A stretch of 64,000 nt of DNA, taken from an uncultured Gemmatimonadaceae bacterium. GTDB taxonomy: Bacteria > Gemmatimonadota > Gemmatimonadetes > Gemmatimonadales > Gemmatimonadaceae. Location: positions 320,001 through 384,000 of the forward strand of contig CAWAGQ010000006.1 of NCBI GenBank assembly GCA_963781585.1, written 5' to 3'. Below are positions 27,301 to 36,300 of this stretch, piece by piece. The position numbers were made by a program. Within the stretch, counting starts at the first letter, position 1; every line of letters begins with the position of its first letter.

Positions 27301-30300
27301 CAATCGTTTCATCCGGTTCCCGTCAGGCGCCGCGCTCGGTCGCGAAGAACCGCAGCGCCCGAAGTCCCGGCAGGAAGAAGTACGCGCCGCCGCGTACCGT
27401 GATGAATTGCGGGAGGCCGCTCACGCGGCGTGGCGCCGCGCCGTCCTGTGGCATCGTAAAGTCGGCGGTCACCGGACATCCTGGAACCGGGGTACGCCCA
27501 CCCAGCAGCGGATCGCTCTCTCCGCTCATTCCGGCGAACTTGGTGTTCATGATCCACGCGTTCTGCAGAAATTCGAACTGACGCGAGATGTTCGCGTTGA
27601 GGCAGACGAAATACAGTCCGCGCTCGGGATCCGACCCTGACGCGGGGGCAAGCGCCTCAGCGGGAGTGAGTCCGGCTCCATACTCGCGGCCGCGCCGCAG
27701 CAGACGATGGTAACGCACCGATGACGTCAGGTCGTCGTAGAACACCTGCCGGCCGAGACCGAGCATCGCCCGCAGCTTCGCCAGCCCGCTCGGATGACCC
27801 GGGAGATCGGTGTTGCGAGGATTCGCTCTCCGGACGTGCGCGCCGAACGGACAGCCGGTGCCCGCCGGATCCCCGTCGAACGTGAACTGATTGAGCCGGA
27901 TCGCATCGGGTTTGGTGCCGATGCCGGGAATCGGCTGCTCCTGAACCGGCACGAGCGGCTCGCCCGCCCGGGTACGCCCCACGAACGCCGCCGCGAGCTG
28001 GTCGGCGCGCTCGAAATTGCCACCGCTCTGCTGAGCGACGAACTGCCAGAACCCCCGCACGTCCTGCCGGAGCTGGCGCATAACGAGATACGTCCCGTTG
28101 CGGCCGACGTCCTTCTGTGACGGCGCGTCCTGGGCGGAGAGCAGATCGGCGGCCGCCGGATCGGCATCGACGACTGGTCGATCGGTGTACTTGCCGTATT
28201 CATTGCGATAGCCGAGCAGAAACTCTCCGAGCGCGACGACGTTGGTGTAGTCGAGCTGCGCGCGGAGGGGATCCCGCGCCTGCTGCCAGTCGATCTCGGG
28301 CTGGCTGATTCCGTCACTGAAGCCGAACGGCTCGAGCCCACCGAGATCGCCGGTGTCCAGCCGGCGCAGCAGGTCGAACGCATCGGTCCAGGTGCTTCCC
28401 TGCGCGCGATGCATGAACGCGTCGACGCCACCATTCCCTGGCTCGGCGAAGAACATCACGACCAGGTGCGGCACTCGCGATTGGCCGCCCGCCCCCCACT
28501 CCCACCGGGCCGGCGCATTGCTCCCGACGTCGCCCAGCCGGCGCGCGCGATTGTCCGCCGCCATCCCGCCGAGAAACTCGGCGGAGAAGCCGCCAACTAC
28601 GGACCAGGGTACGCCGAGCGCCTGCAGCCCCGCCGCGGTGAGCGCGACCTGCAACGCTGTCGATGGCGGGGGAGTCACCGTCACCGCGCTGGTGACCGGA
28701 GCGGATCTGAGCCATGCGCGCGCGGCCGCCGGATTCCTGACACGCGCCAGCAGGTACGCGGCCTGGGTCAGCTTCCCGTGGCCGAAGCGCACGATGCCCT
28801 GCACGTCGGCAAAGTCCAGGTCGCCGCGCGTCACAGGAGCGCCACCCATGCGCGCGCCTCGGCCTCGCTCAGCGCCGGCGATTCCAGCCCGCGGCGAATT
28901 CCGCCGTTCCGTTCCAGGTCGACCGCCGTCATCCCCGGATACGCCTTGTACCAGACCTGGGTCGGCACCTGATGGCGGCGCAGGTACTCCTTGAACTTGC
29001 GCTCGTCGCTGCACCCGTCGAGCAGCAGCCACCTGGTTCGCGGGTATCCGATGCCTCCGCTGAACGCGATGTTGAGCCCGTACCCGACCTTGTTGATGAA
29101 GTCGTCCATGTAGCTCTCGAGGCTTCCGTCGTAGTTGCTGAAGAACACCGCGCGCTTCCTGCCGTCGAGAAAGACCCAGCGCGCGAAGTGGATCGTCCGC
29201 ACCCGGGCCAGCCCGCCGTGGGTGAAGACGTGGCGGGCCGCGTAATCGATCAGGAAGAACGCGGCGATCGCCATCCAGAGTCGCGCGATCCCGGGCTTCA
29301 GGCTCCCCATCGCCGTGAACTGATTGGTGACGTCGTGATCCTCCAGATCGGCCAGATCATCCGAGTATTGCATGTCGACGCGGGAACAGAGCTCCGGATC
29401 CGTCCGCTCCAGCGATCGCAGACGAAGGAGCGTGACGATCGCCACCGGTATGAGGACCGGAGACGCGATCAGCAGCGCCACCGGGACGCCGATCAGGTGC
29501 ATCAGGTTGCGCACACGCCAGCCAGCCGGCGTTGGTTCGTCTGGTGAGAGGCTGAGGCGTCCGGCTGCGCGCTCACCGTTGACGTACTGCCGGAGCGCCG
29601 CGTGGATCGCCGTCGCCGGCAGTCCGGCCAGCGTTTGCGCGTTGCTTTCCACGAAGCGGTCGATGGCCGCGCGCAGCGCGGCTTCCTCACGGACCCGGCG
29701 CACCGTTCGGCCGACCCAATTCACATAGTTGGCCGCCGACGGCACGGTGTGCGCCCGCATCCACCGCAACAGATCGGTGTCGGGCGTGAATCCCTCGCAG
29801 CACGCGAACAGCGAGCGCAATCCATCGGGCGCCACCCGGGCGGCCTGTCGCAGAAACGCATCGGCCTCGCCGTCGATGTCGCCGAGGAACGCGAGGTACA
29901 ACGGATAGGAGGCCGGGGTCAGACCGTGCGCGCGCACGTCGTCGACCGTCCGGTCGTCGATGATCAGGAATCGCGCGACGTGCACGGTGTCGAACTTCGC
30001 GAACGGCACCAGCCCGTTGTCCGGGTTCACGGATCCCGGCCCGTCGTTCATCGACGCCAGCAGCTGGCGAAGGGCCGCCTCGCGCCGCGGATCGATCGGC
30101 GCCAGCACCATGAACTGCGATTGCGGAGTCATCGCCGTTACTCGAAAACCTCGTCCCCGTCGGGCTCGTAATGCGGCACCGCGTTCATCGAGTGCCGCAA
30201 CTGCGACAAGGTCCAGTACATGCGCTTGCGCGCGCGACTCTGATTCCCCAACGGCCGATGCTCCGCAATCGTGTGCCACGGATTGTACGACAGGCGTCTC

Positions 30301-33300: not shown

Positions 33301-36300
33301 TGCGGGTCGAGGCGCCGATCGACGAAGTCGTCGAAGCTGGTCAGGCTCCTGAGGCCGTACTGCCGGCGGAATTCGTTGAACCGCGGAACGCCGCGTTCCC
33401 GGTCGCGGATGATGTCGAGCGCCGCCACGTCGATCTGGCCCGTCTTGCTGGCGGTGATTCTCGGCATGGGCAGGTTCTGGAGGAACTGCGGATGATTGCC
33501 CAGGGTGAGCGCGCCAAGGCGTTGACGCCCCATCGTGACCGCCCAGTTGGAGAGACCGCCCTCGTGCTCGTTCCGGGTCGCGAGCCCGCGGAACGTCGAG
33601 ACCACCGGCACCATCCGCTCCACGGTGTTCGGTTCGTGCCGGTCGCGGAACTCGAGGAGGTCGGGGACCAGGGGGTGAAGCCGGTAGACCGTGATGAACT
33701 CCTCGGGGAAGTTGAACGGCGAGCCGAAATGATTCACGCCGCCGTTCACATCGTCCGGGTTCCTGATGTCCCAGATGTCCTTCGCGTTCGGGTCGAGGCC
33801 AAGAAAGTTGCCGTGGTTGGCGTACTTGTGGCTTCCCAGGCCCATGATCCCGGCGCCCGACGCGAATACGGAATACCACGTGGTCTGGTCGGATTCCTTC
33901 ACGGACTTGCCCTTGAGGTCCACCGCCACCTTGTCGAGCACCCGGGAGACGAGGTTGTCGCTTCTGATCAGCCCGAACCAGTTGGCGTTCATCGCGGTGT
34001 ACAACGGTTCGTCGTACAGCAGCTGCGTGGTCCACTCAATGGTGTGGATCTTCGCGATCTCCGCGGCCACGACGAGCCGGGCCGCCTGGTACAGCTGCTC
34101 CGGCGTCACGTCGCGATTTCGACTCACGAGTTCCGGATGTGCCGGATCGCGAAGGCCCGAGTCGCCATCGGGGTCGGCGGCCGTGCGCCGGCGGAATTCG
34201 TCGACGAACTGGTTGTGCTCGCGCGCGAACACGTTGTGCAGGAAGCTGAGCCCGATCGACCAGTTGTCGGGAAAGGCCACCGATTCCTGCCCGGCCCACT
34301 GGGGATTGATCGGATCGCCCGCGGCGAACGTCGGGAGATACCCCTGGCGATCGCCCTCGGCGGTGTCGCCCGGGATCCGCACCATCAGCAGCTTCGCCGA
34401 ATCGCCTGGATCCCGCTTCACCCGGTGCGCCGACCGATCGCTGTATCCGTAGATCTGCGACGCATCCCACCACGCCGTGTTGGTGTTGCGCGTGGTCTCC
34501 GGTGCGCGCGCGAGATACGCCTGGCCGTTGTGCTCGAACGTGGGTGCCGGCGTGTTTTGCGCGATGATCGCCTTGTCCATCCGGTCGCCCGGACGGCATC
34601 CGAGCGCCGTCACCTCGGCTGGTGTGAGATCGCGCACCGAGTCTCCGTCACGGGTGGTCTTGCAGCCGACCTCCATGGTCGCCGGGTCGTTCTGGCCCTC
34701 GTCCAGGTGCGAGAACCAGTCGTGCGTCATGAACTGGATCCAGAACGCCGCAATGACGTTGAAGAACGGCGCCTTGATGTAGTCGCAGTGCGCGTCGGGA
34801 CCCGAATTGGTTCCCGCCTGGCAGCGCTCCGGCGCCGACTGCTGGCGCGTGAACAACTCGCGGCTTATCACTTGGGGATCGGGCCGCAGGAGTCCGATGC
34901 GGTCCCCATGCCGGTTCCTGACGAGCGGGTTCGCACCGAGAAGCGGAAACGTTTCGTCGAACGGCACGTTGCGCGCGAACAGGGTATTGGTCGAACCCAT
35001 CAGCGGGTTCTTGATGTCGTTGCAGATCCCGCTAAGAGTGCGATGGCGGATGAGCTCCCCGCTGCACACCTGAGGGCCACCGCCGCCCACGTCCTTGTAG
35101 TGCGGATCGCTCGGCGGAAGGCGCATCGCCGGCCAGACCTTGACCGAGCGGCCATGGATCGTACCGAGACCGCTGACGTAATCCTGATACGTGTTGTTGT
35201 CGAACAGGTTGAACTTGATCATCTCGATGCGCTGGTACTCGAGATCGAGCAGCGCCCCGTCGAGCCCACGGCCGTTTCGGGACAGATGGCCGAAGAGCGG
35301 TGAGCTGGATCGTGATGTCGAGTCGCCGGCGCCCCAATAGTTCGACCAGTCAACCCAGGGCGTCCCCCGCTGGGCCACGGCCCTCTCCCCGCCACGGCAG
35401 AGGGCCGTGAATTCCTTCACCTTGCCGAGGAACCGGTCCGCCCGGTTGTCCGCGATCGGGCGGAATCCCGAGACGGCCAGCTGCCGGCAGCCACGCAGCG
35501 ATCGCACCTCGGCACGGAGATTCGGCGACACGGCGATTATCGCGGCCGGGACGACGACCAGAACACCGATGAGAACGATGAGCGTGCGCGTGATTCGACG
35601 CTTCATGGATTGCCTCTCCGTACGGGGGTTGGTGCAATCCGATCACATGGCTCGCGGGACGACGGGTCGGTTCGCGCCAGCCGAGGTCAGCAAACGGTGT
35701 GATCTTACATGCCGAATGAAGAAAACGCGATTCGCGTGATCACCGGTCGTCAGAGGATGCGAACTCCGTGCCTTGGTGCGGTGGCGTGCGGGCAAGGTCG
35801 AGCTCGCCGGTTGGAGATCTACTGCTGCACAGAGGTGCCTGTCGAGTTACAGCTGAGCCGGCCACGCGAAGGCTGGTGCTGCCCGCTGATGGCTGACCGC
35901 TGAGAACTGAGCGCTGTCGACTGACGGCACGCACGGCAGTCTTTGGGTCTTGCCGCCGAGCCCGTGATTACACAAAGTGTGCTCGTTGGGACGTGGTTCG
36001 GTCACGGGAACAGTTCCGGAGGATTTCGGCGACGCTGCAGCACAGCATCCGTGCCACAGCCTGAAAAGCCGCCCGCCAAGCGGGTCGAAAGCCTCGGGGA
36101 CTACGTCGCCTTGTGGCCGCTGCTCGGGTTGTTCATCGGAGGCGGCGCGTGGCTCAAGGCGCACGCGCACGGATTCGTGGAGTCGGGCGGACTGGTGCTT
36201 GCGGCACTGGGTGGCGCGGGATTCCTCTGGAACCTGGTGCCGGAAGAGACGCGCAAGAAAGCACGTCTCGACTTCGGGCAGCACCTGAAGTCGCGGCGCC

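Follow-up and report, generated by a model that had tools for sequence, protein, structure and literature searches.

A widely scattered bacterial cassette of haem proteins with a swappable oxygenase, possibly acting on fatty-acid hydroperoxides

Results

Five coupled genes and a converging sixth

The window, a 64,000-nucleotide stretch of contig CAWAGQ010000006.1 from an uncultured Gemmatimonadaceae bacterium, contains five intact and tightly coupled minus-strand genes, as the initial annotation had reported, separated by gaps of 1-5 bp or overlapping by 4 bp. From high to low coordinates, they encode an alpha-dioxygenase-like haem protein (32712..35606, 964 aa; Pfam An_peroxidase, E 6.8e-68), a short cytochrome P450 (31409..32710, 433 aa; Pfam p450, 27.6 bits for a cut-off of 22.8), a catalase-related haem protein of what we call the Asn clade (30138..31412, 424 aa; alternative start at 31373), a tandem ferredoxin-like (ABM/SchA-like) barrel (28831..30132, 433 aa), and a DyP-type peroxidase (27323..28834, 503 aa). 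A small lipocalin-like beta-barrel protein of 159 aa is encoded on the plus strand (24825..25304), in a gene that converges on the operon. The minus-strand gene in between (25333..27312), branching-enzyme-like and of the GH13 family by Pfam and NCBIfam, is found in none of the 80 loci seeded with the catalase-like protein and none of the 80 seeded with the dioxygenase. Locus L105, otherwise collinear with this one, has no GH13 gene at the corresponding spot, and its small gene directly follows that of the DyP. The GH13 gene is thus probably a passenger inserted between the two.

Composition of the cassette across genomes

The cassette is rare yet widely scattered among bacteria; a scan with the catalase-like protein identified 454 encoding stretches among 516 pattern matches. 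We found no description of it in the literature searched. It had been presented as an invariant, obligate module of three genes lacking Pfam calls. The genes are genuine, but they form neither an invariant nor an obligate module. Its sole fixed feature is the adjacency of barrel and DyP (69/69 loci). The supposedly constant order catalase-barrel-DyP occurs in only 22 of the 69 catalase-seeded loci holding all three genes, and the commonest arrangement is GMC-small-barrel-DyP-catalase (27/80 loci). The barrel-DyP pair adjoins His-type catalase-like genes in two loci (L187 and L190), lies far from the catalase-like gene in the genomes of two others (L029 and L060), and is present in a 97%-complete genome (G154) with no match to the catalase-like protein. 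Nor are there only three genes: the small beta-barrel gene, a cassette member missing from the initial annotation, is found in 65 of the 80 loci and, in a longer form, in 6 more (71 in all). A di-haem c protein is encoded at 58 of these loci and a GMC oxidoreductase at 47. As for Pfam, Dyp_perox_C recognises the DyP at 23.5 bits (cut-off 20), and relatives of the catalase-like protein carry the NCBI name 'catalase family protein'. We also found barrel-DyP, barrel-DyP-catalase, and P450-barrel-DyP fusions. Patatin-like genes occur in 8/80 catalase loci and 7/80 dioxygenase loci, and a lipoxygenase in only 3 of 50 genomes.

The barrel and the DyP peroxidase are predicted to interact

The DyP has the Asp of the GxxDG motif, the proximal His, and the distal Arg of its family, and the invariance claimed for these residues (D174, H333, R380/R381) was confirmed in 67/67 sequences. 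It scores 79.8 bits on TIGR01413, under the cut-off of 100.5, and no export signal is seen in its sequence. The predicted model of the barrel (pLDDT 88.8) has the proposed tandem ferredoxin-like fold, with WhiE-ORFI as best match (9lmn; Z 13.0, rmsd 4.0, 222 aligned; Foldseek E 1e-4) and likeness to the decarboxylase Abx(+)O (Z 10.9). Searches returned no ABM match in Pfam or NCBIfam at E up to 1, and no solved relative by profile. The protein includes a hydrophobic helix at about residues 203-244 and two HxAR repeats, with both His (H51 and H315) conserved.

Complex prediction scored 0.88 for the barrel and the DyP, versus 0.00 for the best control. This mark is attained by 116 of 157 solved pairs and 2 of 215 mismatched pairs, counts that hold only roughly here because we used our own alignments and included a haem. 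At least 94% of the contacts are common to the runs, and the partner pLDDT is at least 90. The two proteins are thus predicted to bind each other. Natural fusion partners tend to pass this complex test.

The model of the small protein (pLDDT 80.9) is a lipocalin-like barrel with N-terminal helices, resembling most closely Tcur_1030 (4mve; Z 11.0, rmsd 3.8, 133 aligned; Foldseek E 8.6e-4), with the next match at Z 7.7. We take 4mve to belong to the GXWXG/DUF4334 family, which is also the nearest named Atlas cluster (0.87, a lead only). No Pfam family matched the small protein at E up to 1.

Alternatively, the locus might be a biosynthetic tailoring cluster whose product is a small hydrophobic natural compound or a modified membrane lipid and not a free-fatty-acid hydroperoxide. 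Catalysis (as cyclase or decarboxylase) would then fall to the barrel and the lipocalin-like protein, with the haem proteins serving as tailoring oxidases. By fold, the barrel comes closest to polyketide enzymes, both small-fold proteins carry invariant His, Asp, Glu, and Arg, and the patchy distribution resembles that of accessory clusters. However, fold sharing shows no function, many of the invariant barrel residues (D335, D344, and those near them) map to the predicted interface with the DyP, and the annotated recurrent neighbour clusters include no synthase, ligase, or carrier gene. We regard this alternative as distinctly unlikely.

The catalase-related protein has an altered distal pocket

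The ERGGNTKT motif is, as claimed, invariant (81/81 sequences). The replacement of the distal His by Asn, initially read from a catalase motif, is confirmed by alignment: Asn125 (81/81) occupies the position of the His in the RxxHxKxHG motif of His-type relatives and, by way of the family profile, that of the distal His in solved catalases and in the coral allene oxide synthase (AOS). This profile, which includes the His-type relatives, matches the small core of catalase-related AOS and hydroperoxide lyases (E 8.8e-17 to 3e4w, 1.3e-8 to 1u5u); the profile of Asn-type sequences only is weaker (0.014). 'His-less', the term first used, describes the distal site only, since H243, H380, and H385 are invariant. 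The residues binding haem are kept (R122, R162, R395, Y399, and R406, each without variation across 81 or 62 aligned sequences), including the haem Arg and the proximal Arg-x3-Tyr of monofunctional haem catalases. The distal His and distal Asn of these catalases are replaced by Asn125 and Ser208 (81/81 for both), although site 208 is variable in His-type relatives too. The distal pocket of the Asn clade thus consists of G124-N125 and S208. In coral AOS, T66 and H67 act on the hydroperoxide (PMC5617202, in part). Since both are replaced here, by Gly124-Asn125, 'allene-oxide-synthase-like' is a statement about fold only. The Asn-clade protein also has an amphipathic N-terminal extension that is absent from most His-type relatives.

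Such a protein could be a haem-binding sensor, a haem store, or a scaffold, with the rest of the cassette acting as a peroxide-protection unit. Both distal catalytic residues are replaced, an equivalent His-to-Asn swap inactivates E. coli HPII (H128N; PMC9687031, in part), and the gene can be remote from the cassette or missing. Yet the 81 sequences are identical at 133 of the 424 positions, with new motifs near the distal pocket among them, and its mean identity over 59 loci is 77%, a value inflated by the gene-based choice of loci, versus 53-64% for its neighbours. Furthermore, His-type enzymes fill the equivalent slot in fusions. We consider a non-catalytic role the least probable of the alternatives we weighed. 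As a precedent for the hydroperoxide reading discussed below, scission of the O-O bond in plant AOS and PGIS is aided by a distal Asn (PMC13049297, in part).

The dioxygenase keeps the residues of alpha-dioxygenases

The likeness of the first enzyme to plant alpha-dioxygenases was reproduced (rice enzyme, E 7.8e-60), and its four motifs are kept in 69, 68, 69, and 65 of 69 full-length relatives. It has the catalytic Tyr and the proximal and distal His (Y641, H644, H295; 69/69), as well as H521, T526, and R863 (68/69, 65/69), equivalent to the His311, Thr316, and Arg559 that bind the carboxylate in the rice enzyme (PMC8720084, in part). Every alpha-dioxygenase residue that we checked is kept, and together they point to C2 (alpha) oxidation over allene-oxide chemistry. 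Hydropathy reveals an N-terminal hydrophobic stretch (residues 8-26), and the protein looks exported. Three cyanobacterial neighbours share the residue numbers of CalDOX (H290, T295, Y358), and our dioxygenase is 38% identical to one such CalDOX/LepDOX-like neighbour. C2 oxygenation has been assayed only in CalDOX and LepDOX, which the cyanobacterial neighbours resemble.

The P450 has an intact ExxR and haem Cys and lacks the acid of the I-helix acid-alcohol pair (alignment of 12 sequences); the aligned I-helix stretch has no distal Asn, and the operon has no redox-partner gene. CYP74 enzymes have an insertion in the haem-binding loop (PMC10813956, in part), where we observe a contiguous FxxGxRxCxG in 12/12 sequences. 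A P450 lies near the dioxygenase in 14/80 dioxygenase loci and is found in 0/80 catalase-seeded loci.

Di-haem proteins and dioxygenases complement each other

All 51 cassette genomes examined carry the di-haem c protein (43 genomes) or an alpha-dioxygenase, and 4 carry both; the presence of the former is partly by construction, the protein having been defined from cassette loci. The 8 genomes without it, this one included, all have the dioxygenase. Of the 48 loci whose flanks are complete, the di-haem protein occurs alone in 41 and the dioxygenase alone in 5; none has both, and 2 have neither. The latter correspond to displaced catalase-like genes in genomes that have the rest of the cassette elsewhere. 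The Fisher p value is 8e-7, or 4e-4 if five cyanobacteria are counted once, with both inflated by kinship. For comparison, dioxygenases are found in 6/251 genomes of one phylum sample and in 0/150 other genomes of the host class. Six further genomes (G051, G052, G053, G154, G836, and G1002) each have at least one of the two, and no di-haem or GMC gene occurs in the 80 dioxygenase loci. The dioxygenase is beside the catalase-like gene in this operon and in 9/80 loci; the others hinge on the di-haem protein, as a putative oxygenase. The oxygenases do not depend on the cassette, since many occur without its genes: cassette genes are absent from 25 of 36 long dioxygenase loci, and in the phylum sample 7/10 di-haem genomes and 6/6 dioxygenase genomes have no barrel match.

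In 36 di-haem sequences, picked for two CxxCH motifs, these motifs and a C-terminal axial His are invariant; at the MauG-type His the consensus is Leu, with His in a minority. Likeness to the RoxA profile (E 0.008 over 26 positions) ranks below plain cytochrome c matches, the PF21419 score is below cut-off, and a local search among 196 proteins matched four RoxA-like fusion proteins (E 9e-7 to 9e-5). The protein may be an alternative front-end oxygenase, a peroxidase, or an electron carrier.

Pairings of an oxidase with a DyP are well established. A flavin oxidase could supply H2O2 with which the DyP oxidises aromatic or lignin-derived compounds, the di-haem protein being a periplasmic peroxidase and the dioxygenase a casual neighbour. 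The frequency of GMC genes given above, the intact catalytic residues of the DyP, and an FAD-linked oxidase at 17/80 dioxygenase loci fit this scenario. However, of the 46 loci with complete flanks that encode both barrel and DyP, 15 have no GMC gene, this genome keeps the cassette without a close GMC relative (best 27%), and the DyP is tied to a membrane protein and lacks an export signal. The scenario also leaves unexplained why the dioxygenase is present wherever the di-haem protein is missing. We find it unlikely, if less so than the other alternatives.

Discussion

We favour, at a probability of roughly 55%, the reading that the locus serves the production and processing of fatty-acid hydroperoxides at the membrane. 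The lipid-hydroperoxide idea of the initial annotation holds up and gains support. That annotation had itself noted the absence of a dioxygenase near most loci; this objection is answered by the presence of the enzyme wherever the di-haem protein is missing. The reading builds on observed gene content, residues, folds, co-occurrence, and fusions; it is supported by the complementarity of the two front-end proteins, the dioxygenase residues, precedent, the barrel-DyP fusions and predicted complex, and the patatin-like genes at some loci. It is weakened by the faint RoxA likeness of the di-haem protein, the replacement of T66 and H67, and the inactivity of HPII H128N, as well as by the rarity of lipoxygenase and the frequent occurrence of the oxygenases without the cassette.

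In the proposed pathway, the exported alpha-dioxygenase would add O2 at C2 of a free fatty acid, in line with the known function of its family, giving a 2-hydroperoxy acid; in most other genomes, the exported di-haem protein would take this slot, with a similar task. The barrel would hold the DyP at the inner membrane face and present the lipid, and the DyP would reduce the hydroperoxide to a hydroxy acid. The Asn-type protein, presumably holding haem via Tyr399 and unable to act as a catalase, would be a reductant-free hydroperoxide lyase or isomerase yielding a chain-shortened aldehyde or oxo acid, and the P450 could offer a second such branch. The lipocalin-like protein may carry the hydrophobic product, and the GMC enzyme, where present, may interconvert alcohol and aldehyde. 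The intermediate must then cross a membrane, because the dioxygenase of this locus and the di-haem protein look exported, unlike the DyP, the P450, and the catalase-like protein. Furthermore, 2-hydroperoxy acids decarboxylate unaided, which lessens the need for a lyase.

Parts of this scheme have precedents, so 'undescribed pathway', as first proposed, needs a qualifier: pairings of a dioxygenase with a catalase-related lyase (Nostoc) and with a P450 (fungi) have been described (PMC13049297, in part). Nostoc punctiforme has a linoleate 10S-dioxygenase and a separately encoded catalase-related hydroperoxide lyase (Brash 2014, as cited in part of PMC13049297), i.e. a haem dioxygenase of the peroxidase-cyclooxygenase family beside a catalase-related protein, as here. 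Our locus differs in its alpha-dioxygenase substrate residues, in having Asn for the distal His, and in the added barrel-DyP pair, lipocalin-like protein, and P450. The coral AOS and hydroperoxide lyase (1u5u, 3dy5) and 3e4w share the small catalase core, the haem Arg, and the Arg-x3-Tyr (roles from part of PMC5617202), but coral AOS has T66-H67 and N137 where our protein has Gly-Asn and Ser, and our protein has the N-terminal extension and is not fused to a lipoxygenase. Plant (4kvj, 4hhr) and cyanobacterial (CalDOX, LepDOX; PMC8720084, in part) alpha-dioxygenases have the same catalytic Tyr, haem His, and His/Thr/Arg, whereas the enzyme here has 964 aa, a predicted export signal, and Cys-containing inserts, and shares its operon with other haem enzymes. 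The fungal dioxygenase-P450 fusions (linoleate diol synthase, AOS) and CYP74 also resemble our locus, in which a haem dioxygenase leads directly into a P450 whose I-helix is non-standard and which has no redox partner close by; but our genes are separate, and the P450 has neither a distal Asn in the aligned I-helix nor a CYP74-type insertion before the haem Cys.

For the di-haem protein, RoxA-related di-haem c enzymes of Pseudomonas oxygenate fatty acids (PMC4496055, in part). Fusions of His-type relatives of the catalase-like protein also occur, four of them with RoxA-like domains and one with a haem peroxidase of animal type. The rubber oxygenase RoxA and the P. aeruginosa oleate-diol synthase PA2077/PA2078 (FadCcp) are, as the cassette protein looks to be, exported, and likewise have two CxxCH and a C-terminal axial His; the likeness in sequence is weak, and the cassette protein mostly lacks the MauG-type His. 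The second step in Pseudomonas is catalysed by another di-haem protein, not by a DyP-barrel pair or a catalase-like protein (PMC4496055, in part). A cassette with a swappable front end, drawn from two unrelated oxygenase-like enzymes, suggests an unstudied bacterial route to make and process oxidised fatty acids.

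Organisation of the locus

The locus lies on the minus strand and begins with an alpha-dioxygenase gene (35606-32712), followed by genes encoding a P450 (32710-31409), a catalase-like protein (31412-30138), a barrel protein (30132-28831), and a DyP (28834-27323). These five haem-module genes overlap or lie at most 5 bp apart in the window. The GC content of the operon (63-70%, with a GC3 of 80-88%) is similar to that of the flanking genes, and promoter and terminator scans of the locus gave no signal exceeding that of shuffled sequences. The initial annotation had left the last three genes without a Pfam call. 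This stands for the catalase-like and barrel genes; the DyP is named by Pfam, as are the dioxygenase and the P450. A GH13 branching-enzyme-like gene with a Pfam name (27312-25333, minus strand) starts 10 bp downstream of the DyP stop and may be co-transcribed with the operon. None of the 160 related loci checked carries a GH13 gene. It looks inserted, probably recently, because in another locus (L105), otherwise ordered alike (dioxygenase-P450-catalase-barrel-DyP), the small gene follows the DyP immediately. In the window, this small gene (24825-25304, plus strand), which has no Pfam name, is convergent with the operon. Divergently from the dioxygenase, four overlapping plus-strand genes (35943-41986) encode two proteins with no Pfam match, one TPR protein, and a papain-family (C1) peptidase of 800 aa.

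Composition and distribution of the cassette

A scan of genome contigs seeded with the catalase-like protein returned 454 encoding stretches, of which we analysed the best 80 (72-83% identity). According to the record titles, these come from Burkholderiales, Acidobacteriota, Verrucomicrobiota, Cyanobacteria, Nitrospira, and others. Among these best 80 of 454, DyP is encoded in 72 loci, the small gene or a longer form of it in 71, the barrel in 70, a di-haem c protein in 58, a GMC oxidoreductase in 47, and the dioxygenase in 9. The barrel gene is directly followed by the DyP in all 69 loci of this set that hold both. The order catalase-like-barrel-DyP, previously described as invariant, is present in 22 of these 69, and the earlier count of 50 out of 50 probably resulted from seeding with close barrel relatives. 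The trio is not obligate either, as had been proposed. Barrel and DyP genes also occur beside catalase-like genes with His at the site of Asn125 (His-type), with the barrel split into half genes, or with no catalase-like gene in view, and one 97%-complete genome encodes barrel, DyP, and di-haem protein with no catalase-like match. The fixed core is therefore the barrel and the DyP.

Several loci depart from the common arrangement. A variant cassette (L012, L020, L037, L038, L041, L053) encodes a small barrel protein that is longer and apparently a lipoprotein, together with a second protein (~700 aa) bearing two CxxCH motifs, and has no GMC gene. In two Bryobacterales genomes (L029 and L060, 10001-11236), the catalase-like gene with Asn (Asn-type) stands apart from the rest of the cassette, between a TonB-receptor-like gene (labelled by eye) and an unrelated gene. 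In a 2.3-Mb bin titled Patescibacteria, P450, dioxygenase, and cassette are spread over two contigs (L017 and L192), which is likely a case of mis-binning.

The cassette is rare across the genomes sampled. Among 150 other genomes from the window's class, one had a barrel match; there was none in 300 and none in 250 other genomes from the phyla of G002 and G034, respectively, with only 5-6 candidates scored per genome in these two samples. A sample of 250 genomes from a third phylum contained two full and two partial barrel matches.

Alternative front-end proteins

Among the best 80 of 454 stretches, 48 loci have full 10-kb flanks: 41 encode the di-haem protein without the dioxygenase, 5 the dioxygenase without the di-haem protein, 2 neither, and none both. 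The two co-occur in one shorter locus (L051). We searched the whole genomes of 50 of the 80 loci, picked to span taxa and omitting many near-duplicate Variovorax and short contigs, together with the window's genome. The di-haem protein is present in 43 of these 51 cassette genomes, and the other 8 all encode an alpha-dioxygenase; 4 genomes have both and none has neither. These eight, which represent about four lineages, comprise the window's genome, two other bins, and five cyanobacteria. The background frequency of the dioxygenase was 6 of 251 genomes in one sample and 0 of 150 in another. Six additional genomes agree with the pattern, and G838 and G850, which have just a DyP and a distant half-barrel, have neither front-end. 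The cassette thus appears to depend on having one of two exported haem proteins. Two other patterns were considered. Lipoxygenase was rejected as the missing hydroperoxide source: it was found in 3 of 50 genomes, all three of which also have the dioxygenase. Mutual exclusion of dioxygenase and GMC was replaced as a description, since 10 of the full-flank loci (among the best 80 of 454) carry the di-haem gene but neither GMC nor dioxygenase.

The exported front-ends often live without the cassette. In 80 metagenome loci of the window-type dioxygenase we found the P450 in 14, the small gene in 10, the catalase-like gene in 9, the barrel in 7, the DyP in 5, and a di-haem or GMC gene in none. Any cassette gene was present in 11 of the 36 dioxygenase loci of at least 12 kb. 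Neighbours of the exported dioxygenase family (L104-L183) include an FAD-linked oxidase (17 of 80), a Tle1-like hydrolase (10), and a patatin-like protein (7).

In the window dioxygenase, the catalytic Tyr and the two haem His are retained, as is the His/Thr/Arg set which, in the rice enzyme, binds the carboxylate and positions C2 (PMC8720084). In the cyanobacterial neighbour proteins of L011, L024, and L076, these residues are numbered as in the assayed CalDOX. The di-haem protein shares two CxxCH motifs and a C-terminal His with PA2077 and RoxA, although it resembles RoxA only weakly and mostly lacks the MauG-type His. The swap and these precedents suggest that it may be an oxygenase. The P450 lacks the I-helix acid in all 12 sequences compared and has no redox partner in the window operon; to judge from sequence, this would suit peroxide-driven chemistry. 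We consider it unlikely that the locus is an H2O2-driven aromatic oxidation unit. P450-barrel-DyP fusions of 1450-1630 aa (P0032, P0040, P0041, P0043-P0046) have an I-helix Pro-Thr in place of the acid-Thr pair.

A catalase-fold clade with a distal asparagine

A profile search of 1.84 billion representatives identified 4694 relatives of the catalase-like protein at E up to 0.001, and we aligned the best 150 with 12 fusion proteins and the window protein. Among 174 aligned stretches (from the best 150 of 4694 and the fusions), the Asn125 site holds His in 83, Asn in 47, and another residue in 9, and is not covered in 35. Matches to solved structures were not significant with the single sequence (E 0.15) or with an Asn-only profile (E 0.014), and were resolved only by a deeper profile. 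In the profile from 85 full-length members, the Asn125 site corresponds to the distal His of solved catalases and to H67 of coral AOS. The His-to-Asn change noted in the initial annotation therefore agrees with the alignment to both, and Asn125 is predicted to lie over the haem. PMC5617202 lists R64, R102, R360, T66, H67, N137, and Y353 for coral AOS. The window protein retains the Arg and Tyr equivalents, whereas the distal sites T66/H67/N137 are replaced by Gly/Asn/Ser.

In a quick-version tree of 105 rows, from which stretches shorter than 270 residues were excluded, 15 of the 16 Asn rows fall on one branch (SH-aLRT 99). His-type relatives are fused to barrel-DyP, RoxA-like domains, or animal-type peroxidase. 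As the His form already occurs in such fusions, the Asn clade appears to be a rebuilt version of a protein from this module type. It lacks distal residues that define catalase and catalase-related AOS/HPL; its similarity to the latter lies in fold and gene context.

The relatives include other unusual architectures. Six His-type proteins (P0134, P0138, P0140, P0177, P0126, P0163) show fusions to RoxA-like di-haem, animal-type haem peroxidase, and START-like lipid-binding domains. P0084 (1223 aa) combines TPR, ankyrin, and LsmAD domains with a pair of catalase-related domains, in one of which Tyr occupies the distal His site. All six cyanobacterial dioxygenase-bearing loci (L076:5655-6590, L003, L006, L011, L024, L074) encode, between dioxygenase and cassette, a 306-311 aa protein with no significant Pfam match; by eye, it has a catalase-like distal His motif and an RLFFRH end, and no Tyr at the proximal-ligand place.

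Catalase activity is unlikely in the Asn clade, because the same change inactivates E. coli HPII (PMC9687031). An Asn protein that is non-catalytic, within a protective unit, would also be compatible with this loss, and we regard it as quite improbable. A distal Asn aids O-O scission in plant AOS and PGIS without being indispensable (PMC13049297), which by analogy makes a role as hydroperoxide lyase or isomerase plausible.

Barrel, DyP, and small protein

Modelled at pLDDT 88.8, the barrel matches tandem ferredoxin-like proteins, with WhiE-ORFI as the best fold match (Z 13.0) and the decarboxylase Abx(+)O at Z 10.9. These matches could be taken to point to natural-product tailoring, which we judge rather improbable as the role of the locus. 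Profile searches of solved structures returned no match for the barrel or the small protein, and the barrel was found in the Atlas in unnamed clusters only. All 67 aligned barrel members have a hydrophobic stretch near residues 200-240. Because both halves form one barrel, a re-entrant or surface anchor is a likelier reading of this stretch than a single membrane crossing. Among the 46 longer relatives of the barrel that were listed, most are DyP fusions, some with an additional catalase-like domain or P450. In five loci (L125, L139, L190, L188, L189), the barrel is encoded by two separate half genes, or by one half adjoining the DyP; such half-barrel genes support the view that the barrel arose through duplication and fusion.

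For the predicted barrel-DyP complex, the score was 0.88, against 0.00 for the best control, with contact agreement of at least 94% and partner pLDDT of at least 90. Of the solved pairs, 116 of 157 reached this mark, as did 2 of 215 mismatched pairs. The counts apply only approximately in this case, and natural fusion partners tend to pass. The predicted interface joins barrel residues 335-348 and DyP residues 417-426, both rich in invariant positions; no complex of this kind was found among solved structures. The small protein is a lipocalin-like barrel, closest to Tcur_1030 (Z 11.0), which fits a putative carrier or small catalyst for a hydrophobic ligand.

Discussion

We give odds slightly above even (about 0.55) to the reading that the locus makes and processes fatty-acid hydroperoxides. 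It is weakest in three places: what the di-haem protein does, the lost Thr-His pair, and the membrane that separates the exported front-end from the cytoplasmic enzymes. A dioxygenase followed by a haem enzyme acting on the hydroperoxide is a logic known from Nostoc, fungi, corals, and Pseudomonas. Literature searches, with most subscription journals outside their scope, found no description of the cassette, the barrel family, the barrel-DyP pairing, or the front-end interchange. The locus is a real, undescribed variant of this known logic. More tentatively, all parts may form a modular machine for fatty-acid oxidation. Alpha-dioxygenase and a di-haem c family, widespread and unrelated to it, would be its interchangeable hydroperoxide makers, the Asn clade a new class of Tyr-ligated haem enzymes, and the barrel a previously undescribed DyP subunit that anchors it to the membrane and presents lipids. 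The Asn clade would then reach, on the catalase fold, the distal-Asn solution of CYP74 and prostacyclin synthase.

Which natural substrates bacterial DyPs use and what purpose bacterial alpha-dioxygenases serve is still largely open, and the locus links both to one testable route. With a front-end enzyme from an assayed family, this locus offers the easiest entry to the multi-phylum cassette. Fatty aldehydes and 2-hydroxy acids are also of value in biocatalysis. If the swap is functional, an unannotated di-haem family gains an assignment as fatty-acid oxygenase. A catalase-fold protein strongly conserved after loss of its distal His would represent new haem chemistry.
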